Of a stretch of 12,299 nt of DNA, positions 3,050-11,655 are shown piece by piece. The notes beneath the pieces are model-generated. The model was not told the origin of the DNA. It saw only the letters and a program-made list of their open reading frames with translations, and did no database searches. Made by a program: the position numbers and the translations under genes. Source of the stretch: Candidatus Jordarchaeales archaeon (GTDB taxonomy: Archaea > Asgardarchaeota > Jordiarchaeia > Jordiarchaeales > Freyrarchaeaceae); assembly GCA_038858525.1 (NCBI GenBank), contig JAWCFL010000047.1:1-12299 (forward strand), given 5' to 3'. Each line of letters starts with the position of its first letter. Position 1 is the stretch's first letter.

Positions 3050-4771
3050 TTGGATAAGAAATTTTGGGGAGGTCCTTTGTCGTCTGAGATTCTTCGCAGG
3101 AAAGTGCTGGATGTGATTAACATAGTCGAGAGCCATGGACTCTTTGTACACGACAGCAGGCTGGTCGTCAGGTGTGGAGATGGAGAGGAGATTAGAGTTT
3201 TGGAGATGCCGCTGGTCGTCACGTTGGCTGTCCTCAACGCTTTGGTTCCTAGGGGGGCCATGCTGCTTTACGGCGGACACGGCGGGGGCAAGACGACGCT
3301 GGCGAAGGTTTTGGGGCGCATGATGACTGGCGCCTATCTTTCAGATGTGGAGGAGGCCATAGTGCGCGGGCACCCTCAACTCACAGAGGAGAAGATGATA
3401 GCAACCCTCAAACCCGGACGCTTACTGAAGGACGGAGTGGAGGAGGTGGTGTGGCGCAGGTTCGTTACTAGCTTCTGGAAGATCGTGGATGAGGTCAACA
3501 GGCTCACACCCTACACCCAGAACATTCTTCTCTCTCTCCTCGCCGAGGGGAAGGTGAAGTTCTATGATGCGGTCTATGAGTGCGACCACTTTGTCCTTTA
3601 CGCGACCATGAACCCCCAGGACCCTGGAACGTTCGAGGTGGGGCTTCCATTCCTTGACAGGTTCGGCATAGCGGTGCCCATAACGATGCCGAGCCTCACC
3701 GAGATCCCCTTCATTCTTGCAGGGCAGGACGAGAAGCTGTATGGCTACGACCCGTATTACCAAGTCCCCCAAGTGCTGAGCATGGAAGAGCTGGTCTCCA
3801 CCTGGCGGCTGGTTGACGCCATCCCAGTAGACGAGGAGGCAAAGTTATTCGTGGGTAACCTCATGTCAGAGTTCTCTGTCTGCGAGAGGACATCGAAGGA
3901 AAACGTGGCCATCCTCAGACCGGATACAGGCCTCTGCGACGGGTGCCACTTCAACGTTGAAAAATCAGTATGCAACAAGGTTGTGACGCCTCTCAGCGTG
4001 AGGGCTGCTAAGGACATTTTAAGGTACTCTAAGGCGTTATCTTGGCTCCTTGGACTGGAAAAGGTGACCGTTGACGTGGTTTATGCCGTAGCGCCCTACG
4101 CGATATGGCACAGGGTTAGATACCCGGAGAAGCTCATCAGGGAGGAGCCATACTACGGGGACCAGTTGAAGTTCACGTTGAACATTGTGAGGCTTGTGAG
4201 GGAGAGGTTTGCGGCGAGAAGAAAAGCTCTGGAGATCTTTGAGAAATTCAAAGTGGGGGAGGGAGACGAGAAAGAGATGAGGATGCTTGAGGAGTGGGGG
4301 AGAAGCGACGTGGTGGTCAAGGTGGAGGTGGCGCCGAAGGCTCGCTACTTCGCCAGCAGGGAGTACAGGAAAATGATAGAAATGCTGAAAATGGCCTTGG
4401 GGTCTGGAAGCGTCGAGAAGCTTGAAGAAGTCAGAGACGCCGTTGTGTCAGAGGGGGGCATACCGAACAGGTTTGAGATACTGCGCATGGTCGAGGAGAA
4501 ACTTTACGAGAGTACAAAGAGAAGCTACAAGGTGACTTTCATAGACTGGAAAGCGATATACGGTAGGCTCGCTGAAAGGTTCCCCGAGCTACAGGAGCCG
4601 CTCAAGCACACCTTCAACCCTCCAAAGTCAAGGTTCATTAAGAGCCGGGAACTCATCATAGCTGTTCACACCACGGGAAGGCATGAGGATGACCCAGTAT
4701 TCATAGAGGTGGCTGGAGGGAGAAAAGCGGAGGAAGTGTCAAAGCTTATAAAGGAGGCTTGTGGAAGCTGA
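3050..4771 (+). CDS. MoxR-like AAA+ ATPase with Cys-cluster insertion and about 200-aa C-terminal extension
   Basis: Walker A is LLYGGHGGGKTT, the H2-insert region is GHPQLTEEK, Walker B is KIVDEVNRL, sensor I is ATMNP and the arginine finger is PFLDRF. The Cys cluster is C278/C296/C299/C308. A vWA gene lies directly downstream. The true start may be TTG 3077. Confidence 0.88.
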   Translation: MDKKFWGGPLSSEILRRKVLDVINIVESHGLFVHDSRLVVRCGDGEEIRVLEMPLVVTLAVLNALVPRGAMLLYGGHGGGKTTLAKVLGRMMTGAYLSDVEEAIVRGHPQLTEEKMIATLKPGRLLKDGVEEVVWRRFVTSFWKIVDEVNRLTPYTQNILLSLLAEGKVKFYDAVYECDHFVLYATMNPQDPGTFEVGLPFLDRFGIAVPITMPSLTEIPFILAGQDEKLYGYDPYYQVPQVLSMEELVSTWRLVDAIPVDEEAKLFVGNLMSEFSVCERTSKENVAILRPDTGLCDGCHFNVEKSVCNKVVTPLSVRAAKDILRYSKALSWLLGLEKVTVDVVYAVAPYAIWHRVRYPEKLIREEPYYGDQLKFTLNIVRLVRERFAARRKALEIFEKFKVGEGDEKEMRMLEEWGRSDVVVKVEVAPKARYFASREYRKMIEMLKMALGSGSVEKLEEVRDAVVSEGGIPNRFEILRMVEEKLYESTKRSYKVTFIDWKAIYGRLAERFPELQEPLKHTFNPPKSRFIKSRELIIAVHTTGRHEDDPVFIEVAGGRKAEEVSKLIKEACGS

Positions 4772-6432
4772 TAGAAAGAAGGGGAAGGAAAAGAGGGGAA
4801 AGTAAGAAGATTCTCTCAGCGGTCAGGAGGGGAGTTTCATTAGCTGTCAGTGACTTCTATTACCCCCCAGTTCCCGATCCTGAGGTCAGAGTAGGAAACG
4901 TGAAGGAAACATTATTTTATATTACGGAGAACGATTGGAAGATACACATAAACGTCAGGGATGTGCCCCCGCTGAGGGGTGATGAACTTGTGGCCTTTTT
5001 TCGCTCGTTGTGTAGGCACGAACTGGGGCACTATGCGGTCTGCCCATACGATGTTCCCACATCGACGCTCATAACTGGTAGTGCCGCCAAGCAGGTTGGA
5101 ACAGACCTAGCAGGCTTCGTCGCAAACTTTTTCTCAGACCTCGTCGTCGACAACTATCTTTTCGAGAGATACCCTGATGAGACCGTGTGGGAGAAGAAAA
5201 TCACCGTGAACTATGCTCGTAGCACTGGTTCGCCGAGCAAGGTGTGGATGGTGCTCGTTAGGTGCTACGAGAAAATGTTGAAAGTTAAACTCGCGAAAAA
5301 TTTAGAGACATCCAGAGAGATAGACAAAGCTGCATCGAGAATAGTTAGGACAATTAGGAGAGGGGGAGTGCTGAATGAGGAAACATGGCCGAGGAAAGTG
5401 AGGAAGGTGGCTGAGATACTTAAGCCTTTCTTGGAGGAATTAAGAGAGCCGACGGCTGGTGTTAAGGGAGAATATAAGGAGACGCCTACAGGCAAACGTG
5501 TTTTTGTTCCAGAGGATGTCGCGAGGACTATGAGGGGAAATCCCTTGAAGCCGCCGCTTAGAAGAGAAGGTGAAAGCTGCGAGAAGGCGGCGGCGAGGCA
5601 TGCCGAGAGAGGTGAGAGGCTTGAGGGCTTCGTTTATGCTGCAAGGTCGGCTGGGCTTGTTTCAAGTGAAAAGGAGGCATTAAGGGCTTGGTATAGGGCG
5701 AAGGCTGACATGAAGATTAATGTTAAGCTTAAGTCGGCGAGGAGGAAGGGAGCGGAGGTGCAGGTTTACCCCGACATATGGAGGATTGACGACCCGATCG
5801 AGGAGCTCGACATACCTCTCTCTATACAGTCATTCCCTAGAATGATACCGGGCGTGACGACGAAGAAATGGATTAAGAGTTCAGGTGAGAGTGGAGGGAG
5901 GGAGGGGGCGCCGCCCGACATGTTAATAGTCCTGGATAGTTCGGGCAGCATGGAGGGCTTTGGAGATGGGACACCTTTCGATCTAGCGCTCATAGCAGCT
6001 TTCTCAGCCCTCAAATTCGCGATGAGCAGGAGCTGTAAGGTTGCAGCCATCAACTTCTCCGATAGAGCGATAGAGTGCAACTGGACCAGGGACAGAATCA
6101 ACATTGAGAACACGCTTCTAGCGTATCAGGGTAACGGCACCGTTCTCCCCGTGAAAAACATAATAGATATCGCGATGAAAAACAATTCAAAGATCCTGCT
6201 ACTAATAATAACGGACACCGAGATATCTAATTGGGACGAGGCCGTGGAAGAGCTTGGGAAGCTTGCATCTATAGGGCATACCGTGTGCATTTTCTTCATA
6301 GGGGGACGCGCAGGTGAGCTGGAGGAGAGACATAAGAAGCTCGTTTCTGCCGGGGGGAAAATTTACACTATTCCGAGCGTTAAGGAGCTACCAGACGTAG
6401 TGATAGAGGAAGTTAGGGGGCACTATATATAG
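4759..6432 (+). CDS. HExxH putative metallopeptidase domain fused to C-terminal vWA (MIDAS) domain
   Basis: RHELGH (H87-H91) is followed by ANFFSDLVVDN (N123, D127, D131). MIDAS residues are LIVLDSSGSM (D393/S395/S397), GNGT (T461) and LIITD (D486). The gene overlaps the AAA gene by 13 nt, and its exact start is uncertain. Confidence 0.85.
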   Translation: MWKLIERRGRKRGESKKILSAVRRGVSLAVSDFYYPPVPDPEVRVGNVKETLFYITENDWKIHINVRDVPPLRGDELVAFFRSLCRHELGHYAVCPYDVPTSTLITGSAAKQVGTDLAGFVANFFSDLVVDNYLFERYPDETVWEKKITVNYARSTGSPSKVWMVLVRCYEKMLKVKLAKNLETSREIDKAASRIVRTIRRGGVLNEETWPRKVRKVAEILKPFLEELREPTAGVKGEYKETPTGKRVFVPEDVARTMRGNPLKPPLRREGESCEKAAARHAERGERLEGFVYAARSAGLVSSEKEALRAWYRAKADMKINVKLKSARRKGAEVQVYPDIWRIDDPIEELDIPLSIQSFPRMIPGVTTKKWIKSSGESGGREGAPPDMLIVLDSSGSMEGFGDGTPFDLALIAAFSALKFAMSRSCKVAAINFSDRAIECNWTRDRINIENTLLAYQGNGTVLPVKNIIDIAMKNNSKILLLIITDTEISNWDEAVEELGKLASIGHTVCIFFIGGRAGELEERHKKLVSAGGKIYTIPSVKELPDVVIEEVRGHYI

Positions 6433-6449: not shown

Positions 6450-7265
6450 TTGAGCGGTTGGGACTCTAAGGTTTCCAAGGCAGCCCTATCTTGCTGCAGG
6501 AGGAGCCTTGATGCCCTAAAGGTCGTTCTTCAAGCGTGGCTTAACAGAGGGAAGCTGGAGGAGAGGAAAGTTCGACCGATAAGCAAGGTAGTCGTAGTTG
6601 CTGATGAGGGTATGATGGCGAGAGAGGCCGTCGGGGAGCTCCTGAAGGAGATGGGTGTTAAGTTCAGAAAGTCAGAGGGACAAGGACGGGTTGTCATGAC
6701 GGTTGATGGAGGGGGTGAAAGCTTCATCATAGAGGTGGTGGAGGGGGGCGAGGCGCAAGGCGGCGATGGGTTAACGCTGAGGGTTAGCAAGCCTGGTTTC
6801 GCTGAGAGAGTGGAGGCGTTAGGTGTTTTGGCGTCTGAGCTCGGAAATTTTGACCTGAGGAGCGTCGCCGAGGCTTGTGATGGATTCACGACGCTGGACG
6901 TTGTTAGGCTAGTCCAGTTTGCTGCTTCACGAAGCCTTGCTGATGGGAGGGATAAGGTGGAGGAGGACGACTTCATGGAGGGAGTCGCTGTTCTGCAGAG
7001 GAGGATAAACGTCTCTGAAACTCTTCCCGATGACCTCTCGGAGCAACTCTACCTTATGGCGGTCAGTGAAGGTGGTGACGGGTTCTCGGAGCTCGTCCAC
7101 CGAGTTAACGCCGGAGAGAAGCTTGACAGGAGGCTTGAAAAAATGCTTGCAAGATACTCGTTCATACTACTCGACGAGCCTGAAAAAAGAGTAGTCAAGC
7201 TCGCCAAGGCTAGAGCGAGCTATGAAAGGCTGAAAAAGGCTTTTGGAGGCGGACAGCGAAGTTGA
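6450..7265 (+). CDS. Degenerate (probably inactive) classic-clade AAA+ protein that retains the helical lid
   Basis: Residues ~110-185 (LRVSKPGFAERVEAL...FDLRSVAEACDGFTTLDVVRLVQFAASRSLADGRDKVEEDDFMEGV) follow the Cdc48/PAN/FtsH lid pattern P-x-x-x-x-R...DL-x-x-LA-x-x-T-x-GFSGADI...EAA...V-x-x-x-DF. No GxxxxGKT or hhhhDE motif was found. The start is TTG 6450 with RBS AGGTGG. Confidence 0.65.
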   Translation: MSGWDSKVSKAALSCCRRSLDALKVVLQAWLNRGKLEERKVRPISKVVVVADEGMMAREAVGELLKEMGVKFRKSEGQGRVVMTVDGGGESFIIEVVEGGEAQGGDGLTLRVSKPGFAERVEALGVLASELGNFDLRSVAEACDGFTTLDVVRLVQFAASRSLADGRDKVEEDDFMEGVAVLQRRINVSETLPDDLSEQLYLMAVSEGGDGFSELVHRVNAGEKLDRRLEKMLARYSFILLDEPEKRVVKLAKARASYERLKKAFGGGQRS

Positions 7266-10200
7266 GCGCATTCAGGCTGAAGTCTCTTTCTTTGAGAAAC
7301 TTTCTCACCTACGAATACGAGTCTTTAGACTTTGTAAGGGAGGGGATGATTGTCTTTATAGGCGGCAACGGGACAGGTAAAACCAGCCTCTTCAACGCCT
7401 TAAGGTTTGTCCTCGGATCAAACCAGAAGGATCAGAGGTACAAGTCTTGGAGCGAGTTCATAAATAACCGTGGCAACGCTAGGTCAGGGTGGGTTGAAGC
7501 GGTTTTCGAGGGGGATGGTGAATCGGTCAAGCTGAGGAGGGAGGTAAGGCGCGGAGAGGCTCCAAGGTTTTATGTCGATGGAAGAAGGGTTAGCGCGGAT
7601 GAGTTCAAGGAGATCGTGCGCGTTAAGCTGGGCGTTGACCCAGACAACCCTTTAGTTTTCGTTCCCCAGGGGCGGGTTGACGCTGTCAAGGAAATGGAGC
7701 CCGTGAAGCTGAGGGAGTTCGTGGAGGAGCTTGTCGGGCTGGCGGATGAAAGGAAGACCATTGACGAGAAAGAAGGCGAGTTTAGAGAAGCGCTGAGGGA
7801 AGCGGATGTCCTTAAGGAGGACGTCAGAATGATCCAGGAAAGGGTGGCGTTGCTAGCTCCGGAGGTTGAAAGGTGGAGGAGGAGAAAGCAACTAGAGGAG
7901 AAACTGAGGAGGCTTGAGGAGGAGGCTGTCTGGAGCAGGATAGAGGAGGGAAAGGCGAGGCTTAATGAACTTGCGAGGGCTGAGAGTGAGGCGGCGGCGA
8001 GAATGGAGGAAGCGTACGCGGCATTCAGGGAGGCGGCCGAGAGAGTTGAGAGGATGGAGACGGAAAGGAGGGTGGCGAAGAGCAGGATGGATGAGATCGA
8101 CAAGGAGGTTGGAAAGCTAAGGGAGGAGGAGGCGGAACTTAGTGCGAAAATCAAAGAGATTTTGAGGAGGCGGGAGAAGTCGCTGGAGGAAGTCGATAAG
8201 GGGAAAAGGGAGCTCGAAAAGGTTGAGAGAGACATTGAAGATCTGAGGGTGAAGATACGTGAGCTCGAAAACAGAAAAGCGGTGCTCGAGGAAGAAAGGA
8301 TGAGGCTAACAGAGAGGAGAGAGAAGCTTGTGGAGGAGCTTAATAATATTTCTGTGGAGAAGGAGAAGTTTAGAGGATGGGAGACCGAGTGGGTTGCGGC
8401 GAAAGCTGATTTTGAGCGGGCAAAGGAGAAGGCTGAGGCGTCAAACAAGAATAGAAGAATGGCTGAGGATGAGCTGGAGAGAGTGAGGAGGAAAATTTCG
8501 GAGTGCGCTCGAAGGGTTGCTGAACTCGCCGAGAAACTTGAAGGATATGACGAGGAAACCTTAAGGAAGAGGAGGGAGGAGCTAAGAAAGGAAAAGGAGG
8601 AACTTATAGCGAAAAGGAAGGATACCGAGGTAAAATTGAGAGGATGGGAAGAAGAAGCGTTAATGCTTAATAAGAAGGTTTCAAGTCTTGAAGCGCGAGT
8701 ACCAGAACAGGTTAGGAGGCTTGAGGAGGAGGTTAAAAAGAGGGGGATGAACGTTGAGGGGCCACTCCTTAAATTGGTCGAGGTGCCCGACGAGTACGCT
8801 GAAGCTGTTGAAGCTGTCCTTGGTAAGGAGCTGTTGGCATTCGTCGCCTTCAATGAATCCGACTTCTATGTTCTAAACGAGCTCAGAAAGAAGTATGATG
8901 CTTGGTGTACAATATACTTGTCGAAGGGGCTGAAAACGTCTACTTTGAGGAAGATAGATGGCGATGGAGTTGTAGGGTGGCTTGAAGAGGTTTTAAAGTT
9001 CCCCGACGAAGTTGGAGGAGTTTTAAGGGACATTACGCGAAGAACCCTTCTAGTCAAAGAGTACAGAAACGCCCTCGCGCTGAGCGGGAAGTACAAAAGG
9101 TTAAGGTTCGTCACGCTTAGAGGCGACGTCGTAGAGGAGAGGAGGGGTGTTTTGAGGAGCCCCTACAGGAAGCCTAGAGGACTCTTAGCCGTGAAAAGGC
9201 TCATGGAGGAACTGGAGGAAGCACAGAAAAACAGGGACTTGCTGGAAAGGGAGCTTAAAGCCTTGGATGAGAGGCTAAGCGAGGTGAGGAGGGAGGAGGG
9301 GAAAGTCGAGGGGGCGATCATGGTTCTCCCCCACTGGAAAAGTCTTCTGAGCGAGAAGATTCGCCTTGAAGATGAGGAGAAAAAACTGAGAGAGGAGGCG
9401 GAAAAAGCCAGAGAGGAGGCGGAAAAAGCCAGAGAGGAGCTGGAGAAGGCGAGGGCGAAGCTAGTAGAGGTTGAGAGCAGAAAGCCGAAGGATTACGTTG
9501 AGCTTGAAGAGGAGGAGAGAAGGGTAAAGGATGAACTGGTAAAGCTAAATCAGAGCATGAAGAAAGTGGAAGCGGAGTATGGGCGGGCGGTGAAGGAGAG
9601 AGAAAAGGCATTGTTAAGGCTCAAGGAGCTTGAGGTTTTCGGCGAGAGCTTATCGAGGAGCATTGAAGCTTTAATGGAGATTGTCACAATGGGGGACAAG
9701 GAGGCTAGTGACGCAACAAGAGAAATAAAAGGGCTGGAGATAAAGGCTAAGGAGTTGCTTGACGAGAAAAGAAGGCTAGAGGAATTGATTGAGGAGCTAC
9801 TTCAGACGTTGGGAAAGGAAAGAGAAAAAATGAGGGAGATGGGGGAAAGGCTTGGAGACAGGAGAAGTGAGGTAGAAAGGATAAGAAGCGAAGTTAGGAT
9901 TGTGAGGGAAGAAGTGGAGGGATTGGAGAGGGAGGCGGAGAGGAGAGGACTAAGGAAGCCGATTAAAGTTAGGCCGCTCTCCGAGGTTAAAGGTGAAATG
10001 GCTTTCCTTGAGGAGGAGCTTGCAGGTTTAGCGGATGTCGACGAGAAAGTTACGAGAGAGATGGAGGAGCTGGAGGAGAGAAGAAAACACGTGGCCAAGA
10101 AGCTTGGGGAGTTGGAGGAGGAGCTACGGGGCATCTTGGAGGAGCTGGAAAGGAGAAAGAAGGACTACATAGTTAAGCTGGTTGGGGTGGTTGAGGGCGT

Positions 10201-10621
10201 TGAAAAGTCGGTTAACGAGTTGCTTGCAATGGTTAACATGAAGTGTAAGCTGAACGTTAGGGGGGATTACAGTGATGCTGGAGTGGAGGTTAAGCTGAGC
10301 GTTAAAGGCGGGCCCATGATTAACGTTACATCAGTAAGTGGTGGGGAGAGGTGCTTCTTCGCTATAGCCCTTATAGCTGCACTACAGAAAGAGTCACGTG
10401 TCCCCCTCGTTTTCCTAGACGAGCCTTCAACACACCTCGACTCCGAGAACAGCGACAGGACGGGACGGATACTGAAGGAGGTGGCTCGTGAAAGGCAGGT
10501 TTTAGTTCTTGTTCCCGACAAGTATCTGGAGTTCGCCAAGCATGCCGATCAGTGCTATGGAACCGCCACTAAGGGTGTTGGGGGAGCGAGCATCGTTATC
10601 CCAGTCAGAATAGCCGGGTGA
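7262..10621 (+). CDS. smc: Structural maintenance of chromosomes (SMC) ATPase with globular hinge, Smc5/6-related motif set
   Basis: Walker A is GGNGTGKTS (34-42) and the Q-loop is FVPQGRV. Two coiled-coil arms of about 340-350 aa flank a hinge (~497-640, GPLLKLVEVPDEYAEAVEAVLG). The signature is VSGGER (1025-1030), Walker B/D-loop is FLDEPSTHLD and the H-loop is QVLVLVP. Its start overlaps the upstream stop as TTGA. Confidence 0.95.
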   Translation: MSAFRLKSLSLRNFLTYEYESLDFVREGMIVFIGGNGTGKTSLFNALRFVLGSNQKDQRYKSWSEFINNRGNARSGWVEAVFEGDGESVKLRREVRRGEAPRFYVDGRRVSADEFKEIVRVKLGVDPDNPLVFVPQGRVDAVKEMEPVKLREFVEELVGLADERKTIDEKEGEFREALREADVLKEDVRMIQERVALLAPEVERWRRRKQLEEKLRRLEEEAVWSRIEEGKARLNELARAESEAAARMEEAYAAFREAAERVERMETERRVAKSRMDEIDKEVGKLREEEAELSAKIKEILRRREKSLEEVDKGKRELEKVERDIEDLRVKIRELENRKAVLEEERMRLTERREKLVEELNNISVEKEKFRGWETEWVAAKADFERAKEKAEASNKNRRMAEDELERVRRKISECARRVAELAEKLEGYDEETLRKRREELRKEKEELIAKRKDTEVKLRGWEEEALMLNKKVSSLEARVPEQVRRLEEEVKKRGMNVEGPLLKLVEVPDEYAEAVEAVLGKELLAFVAFNESDFYVLNELRKKYDAWCTIYLSKGLKTSTLRKIDGDGVVGWLEEVLKFPDEVGGVLRDITRRTLLVKEYRNALALSGKYKRLRFVTLRGDVVEERRGVLRSPYRKPRGLLAVKRLMEELEEAQKNRDLLERELKALDERLSEVRREEGKVEGAIMVLPHWKSLLSEKIRLEDEEKKLREEAEKAREEAEKAREELEKARAKLVEVESRKPKDYVELEEEERRVKDELVKLNQSMKKVEAEYGRAVKEREKALLRLKELEVFGESLSRSIEALMEIVTMGDKEASDATREIKGLEIKAKELLDEKRRLEELIEELLQTLGKEREKMREMGERLGDRRSEVERIRSEVRIVREEVEGLEREAERRGLRKPIKVRPLSEVKGEMAFLEEELAGLADVDEKVTREMEELEERRKHVAKKLGELEEELRGILEELERRKKDYIVKLVGVVEGVEKSVNELLAMVNMKCKLNVRGDYSDAGVEVKLSVKGGPMINVTSVSGGERCFFAIALIAALQKESRVPLVFLDEPSTHLDSENSDRTGRILKEVARERQVLVLVPDKYLEFAKHADQCYGTATKGVGGASIVIPVRIAG
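9389..9439 (+). repeat. Perfect 21-bp in-frame tandem repeat (about 2.4 copies) in the SMC C-terminal arm
   Basis: AGAGAGGAGGCGGAAAAAGCC occurs at 9389-9409 and 9410-9430, with a partial AGAGAGGAG at 9431-9439. It encodes REEAEKA-REEAEKA-REE. Confidence 0.95.
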
Positions 10622-10636
10622 AGGGAGGGAAAATAA

Positions 10637-11185
10637 ATGATAGACGAGGTCTTGACGATGATCGAGGAGGGGAGAGTTGACCCTGCAGAGGTGAACCTTG
10701 GGGCACTCATAGTGGAGGTGAAAGAGGCAGTTGACCTGCGGGAGTGGAGCGAGAAGTTCTCAAGGCTGGTTCGCTTAGCAAGGCTCAAGGTTAGGGCGCT
10801 GGTTGAGAAAGTTCTTCAGCTAAGAGAGGGGAAGGCTTTCACCTTCGTTTCGCCTTCTTTACCATTGATCCCGTGGATTAGTTTCAGGGAGGCGGAGGTC
10901 GACCTTAAATCGCTCGTCGAGGCGTTCTCGAGAAGAAGACGTGTGGAGGACGAGTATGAGGAGGCGCTGCTAGAGAAAAAGGATGTCGTGGAGCTATGCT
11001 TGGTTGAGGAGAGGCGGCACAGGGAGGATGTTTTGAGGCGAGTTGCCGAGCTTGGAAGGGTAAAAGTGGAGGAGCTGCTCGAGGGTGGTATGCTAGAAAG
11101 AGTCTCAATTTTCGTAGAAGTTTTGAGATTAATAACAGAGGGAGTTCTGGGTTACGATAGGGACACGGGGGAGGTGTACGTTTGA
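10637..11185 (+). CDS. scpA: Short ScpA-like kleisin subunit
   Basis: The N-terminus (GRVDPAEVNL, DLREWSEK...ARLKVRAL) parallels ScpA IDPWDIDI and DLR...LRxKSxxL. The middle has VDLKSLVEAF. The C-terminal winged helix is RVKVEELL...RVSIFVEVLRLITEGVL...GEVYV. It lies directly after smc with RBS GGGAGGG. Confidence 0.8.
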   Translation: MIDEVLTMIEEGRVDPAEVNLGALIVEVKEAVDLREWSEKFSRLVRLARLKVRALVEKVLQLREGKAFTFVSPSLPLIPWISFREAEVDLKSLVEAFSRRRRVEDEYEEALLEKKDVVELCLVEERRHREDVLRRVAELGRVKVEELLEGGMLERVSIFVEVLRLITEGVLGYDRDTGEVYV

Positions 11186-11655
11186 GTGAGCATGAAGCGG
11201 TTTTCGCTGGATTAGCTGTTAGGGGGTGGAGGGGGATTAGCGTCAGCGATTTAGCTAAGACAATGGGGCTTAGAGGGGAGCTTGGAGAATGGTATGCTCT
11301 CAGAACACTAATCGGCGCTGCGAAGTACATGAGGCTCTTAGGGTTAACTCTCAGGTTTAACCCGGTGACGGGGACTTGGATAGTAACGTATCGCAGCAGG
11401 GAGACGGCCGGGGGGGCGGGGCTTCCTAGAAGGTTGAAGGCGACGCTGGCCGCTGTTGTCGAGGCTCAGGGCGGTCGTGGTAGCGCTCTGCTTGAGGACA
11501 TACAGAGGTTGAGGGGGAAAAGCAGGAGGAGTACGCTGGACGACCTTAGGGAGCTCGAGGAGATGGGGCTTGTTGAGCGTGTGGGAAAAAAGGAGTTTAG
11601 GATGGCGAAGGTGCTCGCCCCCTTCTTAGAAGAGGGGACGCAACACGGTTTATAG
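11182..11655 (+). CDS. Tandem winged-helix kite subunit (ScpB/Nse1/Nse3-like)
   Basis: wH1 is ISVSDLAKTMG...LLGLTLRFNPVTGTWIV. wH2 is LPRRLKATLAAVV...LEDIQRLRG...LDDLRELEEMGLVERVG, resembling ScpB LSxAALETLAII...IxxIRG...LxxxGLV. It has RBS GGAGGTG and a TTGA overlap with the kleisin stop. Confidence 0.75.
   Translation: MSEHEAVFAGLAVRGWRGISVSDLAKTMGLRGELGEWYALRTLIGAAKYMRLLGLTLRFNPVTGTWIVTYRSRETAGGAGLPRRLKATLAAVVEAQGGRGSALLEDIQRLRGKSRRSTLDDLRELEEMGLVERVGKKEFRMAKVLAPFLEEGTQHGL

Follow-up and report, generated by a model that had tools for sequence, protein, structure and literature searches.

A degenerate AAA+ protein precedes a second, divergent SMC gene in Asgard archaea

Background

SMC complexes usually consist of SMC proteins, a kleisin and kite or hawk subunits. 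Eukaryotic Smc5/6 also has the non-catalytic regulators Nse5 and Nse6, which are α-solenoid-like and not derived from AAA+ proteins. Inactive AAA+ proteins acting as scaffolds or regulators are found elsewhere, for example the clamp-loader subunits δ and δ' and the Torsin activators LAP1 and LULL1.

Two papers describe operons of three genes only from TACK and Asgard archaea, in which a second, "SMC5/6-related" SMC is encoded together with a kleisin and an Nse1/3-like kite of its own, and one of the two notes a possible third SMC set in some Asgard genomes (PMC8665677; bioRxiv 10.1101/2024.01.07.573240). The term "AAA" occurs zero times in these papers and MoxR is not mentioned. Likewise, no account of an AAA-type gene at SMC operons of archaea turned up in full-text literature searches.

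The locus analysed here resembles the SMC5/6-related operons (van Hooff et al.; Yoshinaga & Inagaki 2021) in having an extra, divergent SMC gene with a kleisin-like and a kite-like gene, and in that a canonical Smc-ScpAB operon is present elsewhere in the same genome. It is unlike the operons as published in carrying an AAA-type gene, the product of which is called pseudo-AAA in the following, and a MoxR-vWA pair; membership of its SMC in the SMC5/6-related clade is putative.

Gene content of the locus

The window, i.e. the whole stretch of DNA that was analysed, covers 12,299 nucleotides of a Candidatus Jordarchaeales archaeon (contig JAWCFL010000047.1, genome G000 in our numbering). It holds six co-directional open reading frames in the order MoxR, vWA, pseudo-AAA, SMC and two small frames.

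3050 to 4771, + strand: MoxR-type AAA+ protein, 573 aa, matching AAA_5, AAA_3 and AAA_lid_2
4759 to 6432, + strand: vWA protein, 557 aa, with HELGH at aa 87-91 and the MIDAS motif DSSGS at aa 393-397
6450 to 7265, + strand: pseudo-AAA+ frame, 271 aa, TTG start, TGA stop
7262 to 7265, + strand: overlap of the pseudo-AAA stop with the SMC start, TTGA, 4 nt
7262 to 10621, + strand: divergent second SMC, 1119 aa, TTG start, matching SMC_N and SMC_hinge, Walker A and B intact
10637 to 11185, + strand: putative kleisin, 182 aa, assigned by position
11182 to 11655, + strand: putative kite, 157 aa, with homologues downstream of SMC and weak winged-helix matches

The Walker A motif of the MoxR protein is intact (GGHGGGKT). 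Because HELGH and a MIDAS motif are present, the vWA protein may be a metallopeptidase-vWA fusion partner of MoxR. The hinge of the window SMC scores 51 bits and that of the canonical SMC on contig C2 134 bits. The raw score of the window SMC profile is higher against Smc2/3/4 chains (~240 bits) than against Smc5/6 chains (~170 bits). The putative kleisin has no Pfam match, and relatives were found by phmmer in genomes G114 and G310 only. A profile of the putative kite retrieved generic winged-helix regulators only from the PDB, with no match to Nse1/3 or ScpB.

Three SMC sets are present in the window genome, which fits the published remark on a third set in some Asgard archaea. Contig C2 carries canonical Smc (1194 aa) with ScpA and ScpB (78.7-82.3 kb; L042:4473-9278), and contig C4 carries an SMC of 1155 aa with a 221-aa open reading frame and a ScpB-like kite (L058:5233-9910). 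No pseudo-AAA-type gene precedes either of these two sets.

A defence-system reading of the operon is unsupported by PADLOC, which returned no match for pseudo-AAA, MoxR, vWA, kleisin or kite and generic ABC/SMC-type matches only for the SMC. Just upstream of MoxR, a PRK13696-like small frame (2336-2581, + strand) overlaps a PIN-domain frame (2545-2967, + strand), a pair resembling VapBC-type toxin-antitoxin genes. Further upstream of the operon are an Ssb-like OB-fold protein and an Old-Yellow-Enzyme-type flavin oxidoreductase (294-734 and 1059-2171, both - strand). Outside the archaea, a full-length relative of the window SMC, 23% identical, is encoded on a Thermodesulfobacteriota MAG contig (CAYFYO010000052.1; L041).

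Coding status and selection

The stop codon of pseudo-AAA overlaps the SMC start by four nucleotides at 7262, as the preliminary description of this DNA had read it, and the overlap in G114 is likewise 4 nt. Six orthologues of 60-91% identity were found without internal stops. Between G000 and G114, dN/dS is ~0.12 for the whole gene, 0.12 for the remnant of the ATPase core and 0.07 for the C-terminal tail, values which are rough since dS is near saturation (~1.7). The core remnant is therefore still constrained and not drifting.

In G115 the orthologue is split between two overlapping frames (L003:1187-1537 and L003:1507-2025). The NCBI protein P0007 (279 aa) reads through this split, which is either a frameshift or an assembly error.

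One might read pseudo-AAA as a gene in decay that does nothing itself and persists only for the translation start signals of SMC that it carries. Its core is the shortest of the family, and the split in G115 would agree with decay. The low dN/dS, core remnant included, the six intact orthologues, the very confidently predicted fold and a tail conserved across the phylum all speak against this reading, which we consider extremely improbable. Selection maintains pseudo-AAA as a conserved gene, and its link is to a single SMC paralogue.

Predicted fold and loss of the ATPase core

The AF2 model of pseudo-AAA has a pLDDT of 92.7. The following parts were distinguished.

6450 to 6575, + strand: N-terminal helices (aa 1-42), modelled at 2-15, 17-31 and 33-38
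6576 to 6785, + strand: collapsed core remnant (aa 43-112) with β1, ADEGM, α1, β2, two hairpin strands and β5
6603 to 6617, + strand: P-loop remnant ADEGM (aa 52-56), in the Walker A columns of the family alignment
6786 to 7010, + strand: classic-clade AAA+ lid (aa 113-187), four helices, AAA_lid_3 type
7011 to 7262, + strand: linker and conserved C-terminal tail domain (aa 188-271), five helices within 194-266

In type the lid belongs with those of Cdc48, PAN and FtsH. Residues 133-177 match Pfam AAA_lid_3 with an E-value of 1.3e-5 and 25.1 bits against a cut-off of 27.2 bits, and 6/6 orthologues match this family as well (best E-value 1.8e-7); none of the MoxR signatures (AAA_5/AAA_3, AAA_lid_2) is matched. 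A profile built from the six orthologues matched FtsHi, PAN, Vps4/CdvC, FtsH and Rpt4 in the PDB over query positions 111-185, which correspond to the last core strand and the lid. The match lists obtained with VIA-align and Foldseek for the full-length model are filled by the AAA module. The VIA-align ranges begin at model residues 1-9, and the N-terminal helices, in which W4, K7, K10, C15, C16 and W30 are invariant among the six orthologues, superpose on the helical segment before β1 of AAA modules. The similarity to AAA+ proteins is far beyond chance, and common descent with classic AAA+ (PF00004/PF17862) was found. The homology is also transitive, as full-size relatives of pseudo-AAA match Pfam AAA PF00004 (E-value 3e-10) and Cdc48 D1 in the PDB (E-value 2e-19).

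In the core, the model places β1 at 46-51, a loop at 52-56, α1 at 57-68 and β2 at 72-77, followed by a β-hairpin (80-87 and 90-98) and β5 (108-112). According to the model and the alignment with relatives, α2, α3 and α4 with the second region of homology are missing, and therefore Walker B, the pore-loop regions, sensor 1 and the arginine fingers are missing too. No GxxxxGK[ST] occurs anywhere in the protein. The α2-β3-α3 segment of the relatives, on which a Walker B motif hhhhDE would lie on β3, is predicted to have no counterpart except the hairpin. The sensor-1 asparagine and the arginine fingers are absent, the TTRPELVDRELLAMFDR stretch of the relatives being replaced by EGGEAQGGDG.

The preliminary description, which was made from the letters and their translations, agrees well with these results. 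A classic-clade lid had been recognised there, and AAA_lid_3, the PDB profile matches and the AF2 model all recover it. The strand-loop-helix-strand layout with ADEGMMAR in place of the P-loop is seen in the model, as is the helical tail of ~85 aa, which is confidently modelled over residues 188-271. The core was correctly called much shortened (67 residues from β1 to the lid, as opposed to 120-156 in relatives), and model and alignment agree with it that Walker B is gone. The AF2 and Foldseek comparison that it had proposed did find AAA+ likeness in lid and core, and its term dead AAA+ derivative holds by sequence, fold and family series. Judged from sequence and predicted fold, pseudo-AAA is an AAA+ derivative unable to bind ATP in the canonical way. 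Ring assembly by it is doubtful given the interface helices that the model lacks.

Compared with classic AAA+ proteins (Cdc48/p97, NVL/Rix7, PAN/Rpt, FtsH/Yme1, Pex1/6; PF00004 and PF17862), pseudo-AAA shares the four-helix lid but lacks the P-loop lysine, Walker B, sensor 1, the arginine fingers and three core helices. It has neither an N-domain nor a second ATPase ring, and has instead an extra conserved tail of ~80 aa. FtsHi of the chloroplast Ycf2-FtsHi motor is similar in that the AAA+ fold was kept after catalysis had been lost, presumably for binding. Inactive AAA+ subunits such as FtsHi, clamp-loader δ/δ' and LAP1/LULL1 have a full-size core, however, and act in or on AAA+ rings, whereas pseudo-AAA has lost half of its core and is linked to the SMC, an ABC-type ATPase.

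The preliminary description had also suggested co-assembly with an active AAA ring. Pseudo-AAA, itself inactive, would then take a place in a classic AAA ring, for instance of Cdc48, or sit on it as a cap, and direct the ring to the SMC complex. The type of the lid would suit such a subunit, and rings mixing active and inactive AAA subunits exist elsewhere, FtsHi being an example. The interface elements and pore loops (α2, α3, α4/second region of homology and arginine-finger segments) are deleted, though, and the loci examined share no active AAA gene next to the family member, which makes co-assembly unlikely. The neighbouring MoxR belongs to another clade (AAA_5/AAA_lid_2), and the Cdc48 gene near the SMC set of contig C4 is 1.9 kb away on the other strand. 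We regard a ring subunit as highly improbable.

An Asgard-wide family and its reduction series

The orthologue profile was searched against 400 whole Asgard genomes. Near-full-length matches (E-value below 1e-50) were obtained only in G114, G115 and G005. In ~200 further genomes the last 80-160 residues of the profile matched the C-termini of open frames of ~340-440 aa, with E-values of 1e-15 to 1e-5. A HMMER search with the Jordarchaeales profile against 1.8 billion representatives gave 45 matches.

In the full-size relatives, Walker A reads G-[TS]-[DE]-[FIL] instead of GK[ST], and its lysine is gone in 56 of the 57 family members having this region. The sole member seen with an intact Walker A (GPLGTGKS) is P0020, a protein of 374 aa from a Helarchaeales MAG; its Walker B reads FDP, its arginine fingers are absent and its branch is long. 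P0179 (232 aa, from a 12-kb metagenomic contig) may start at about β4, keeping lid and tail, and is either a shorter family member or a truncated gene call.

The length of the core from β1 to the lid varies across the family as follows.

Loki-type: 138-156 aa
Thor-type: 120 aa
G310: 115 aa
Three metagenomic forms: 102 aa
Baldrarchaeia protein (G005): 90 aa
Jordarchaeales: 63-74 aa (67 aa in the window protein)

In a tree of lid and tail the reduced forms group on one side. The Jordarchaeales proteins form a clade (SH-aLRT 99), the sister of which is the Baldrarchaeia intermediate (support 82). Within this Asgard-wide family of dead AAA proteins, reduction has gone furthest in the window protein.

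The C-terminal tail

The tail is the best-conserved region, both within Jordarchaeales and family-wide. Its core motif runs P-D-D-x-x-x-Q-L-Y-L-M-A, then R-Y-x-F-I-L, and ends in a basic last helix; across the family this becomes Q-L-Y ... F-x-L ... A-K-K, and Q199, Y201 and A254 are invariant in 53 family sequences. The length is fixed at 74-78 aa (78 aa in the window protein), and the preceding linker has 3-8 residues, 7-8 in all members except three. That the tail and not the lid is best conserved was absent from the preliminary description, as was the large Asgard family.

A search with the tail profile against a collection of 5.8 billion proteins gave 618 clusters. Among those listed, the named ones are all Asgard (Promethearchaeota/Lokiarchaeia, Thorarchaeota, Hermodarchaeota) and annotated as hypothetical. 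The ESM Atlas gave no usable match for the tail, and against the PDB its profile gave chance-level matches only, among which were Zip2 (E-value 0.009 over 35 residues) and topoisomerase I. No Pfam match was consistent across the scanned tails. The histone-fold family TFIID_20kDa (E-value 0.003-0.008) was treated as a chance match because it was limited to Jordarchaeales among the tails scanned.

The last helix has a net charge of +7 on an otherwise acidic protein, and a K/R-rich C-terminal end is conserved family-wide. Both features would suit a protein that binds DNA or regulates the operon through this helix, independently of the SMC complex. Yet no helix-turn-helix or other DNA-binding family was matched, and strict adjacency to SMC with overlapping frames is more typical of a complex subunit. 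Such an independent role appears quite unlikely.

Synteny and co-occurrence

Synteny was compared in 30 genomes of Jordarchaeales, Baldrarchaeia and Thor-, Loki- and Hel-type archaea; because these genomes are related, the counts do not represent independent cases. A homologue of the window SMC lies directly downstream of the family member in 30/30. Among the 16 loci with flanks of 5-8 kb, 14 have a kite homologue after the SMC and a kleisin-sized gap; of the remaining two, one breaks off within the SMC. An open frame of 1513 aa in G319, considered as a fusion of the AAA-type protein with SMC, consists of two frames parted by a stop.

The sampled genomes, related as these are, have either both pseudo-AAA and the window SMC or neither. 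Pseudo-AAA is missing from six genomes of the sister family within this order (one of them closed, completeness 87-100%), which also have no high-scoring match to the window SMC. Both are absent from the sampled genomes of four other Asgard families, and in two incomplete congeners the genome missing one of the two genes misses the other as well.

Alternatively, the real partners of pseudo-AAA could be the MoxR ATPase and the HExxH-vWA protein, to which, as an adaptor, it would bring the SMC complex or the kleisin of that complex. MoxR, vWA and pseudo-AAA are co-directional in the window with junctions of -13 and +17 nt, the vWA frame ending 17 nt upstream of pseudo-AAA, and MoxR, with or without vWA, adjoins the set in Jordarchaeales, Baldrarchaeia and many Thor-type genomes, ~15 of the 30 in all. 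However, MoxR is co-directional in Jordarchaeales and Baldrarchaeia and divergently transcribed in the Thor-type genomes, and nine Loki- and Hel-type genomes keep the pseudo-AAA/SMC pair with no MoxR or vWA within ~4-7 kb. The invariant link is SMC. The comparison of co-occurrence with SMC and with MoxR-vWA, proposed in the preliminary description, hence favours SMC (30/30 against ~15/30 genomes), and an adaptor for MoxR is in our view rather unlikely.

Proposed role

Since pseudo-AAA always directly precedes one extra SMC gene, we consider it probable, with moderate confidence, that it serves the second, divergent SMC complex as an accessory subunit or regulator without catalytic activity, a physical association to which the genomic context points. 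Docking on the SMC complex had been part of the preliminary description; the adjacency in 30/30 genomes, the joint presence and absence and the overlapping frames agree with this claim, in which docking itself is inferred from sequence context.

Pseudo-AAA is a degenerate descendant of a Cdc48-type classic AAA+ module, predicted to have lost ATP binding and hydrolysis. What is left of the module is a small remnant of the β-sheet and the four-helix lid, to which a C-terminal helical domain specific to the family is joined. The protein would be made together with the SMC complex from overlapping reading frames. Contact with the complex may be through the conserved tail, with its acidic body and basic last helix, while the lid would serve as a scaffold. 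The binding partner might be SMC, kleisin or kite, and loading or the ATPase activity of SMC might be affected; the basic last helix (+7) could touch DNA or an acidic surface of the complex. Only about half a core is left in the Jordarchaeales form, which suggests that the protein needs neither a ring nor bound nucleotide to do its work.

Nse5/Nse6 and other SMC loaders resemble pseudo-AAA in the role proposed for it, that of a non-enzymatic accessory factor associated with an SMC ring. They differ in that Nse5/6 and pseudo-AAA have no sequence or fold relationship, and the tail profile matches none of these factors in the PDB.

More tentatively, lid and tail may form a stoichiometric fourth subunit of the second (SMC5/6-related) SMC complex of Asgard archaea. 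Such a subunit would be an AAA-derived, ATP-independent regulator docking on the SMC head, neck or kleisin and controlling loading or head engagement. We see this as a possibility somewhat short of even.

Conclusion

The Jordarchaeales version of pseudo-AAA is a natural deletion experiment, in which half of the ATPase core is gone while lid and tail are strongly constrained, and a clear example of how far the AAA+ fold can be trimmed and still be kept. Its lid and tail show which part to express, to crystallise and to use as bait. A fourth conserved, translationally linked and AAA-derived gene before SMC across Asgard archaea points to an unrecognised component of an SMC complex that has been placed on the evolutionary line to eukaryotic Smc5/6. 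If the fourth-subunit proposal is true, dedicated regulators without catalytic activity were already part of SMC complexes in the archaea closest to eukaryotes, and the Jordarchaeales protein would define the minimal functional unit.
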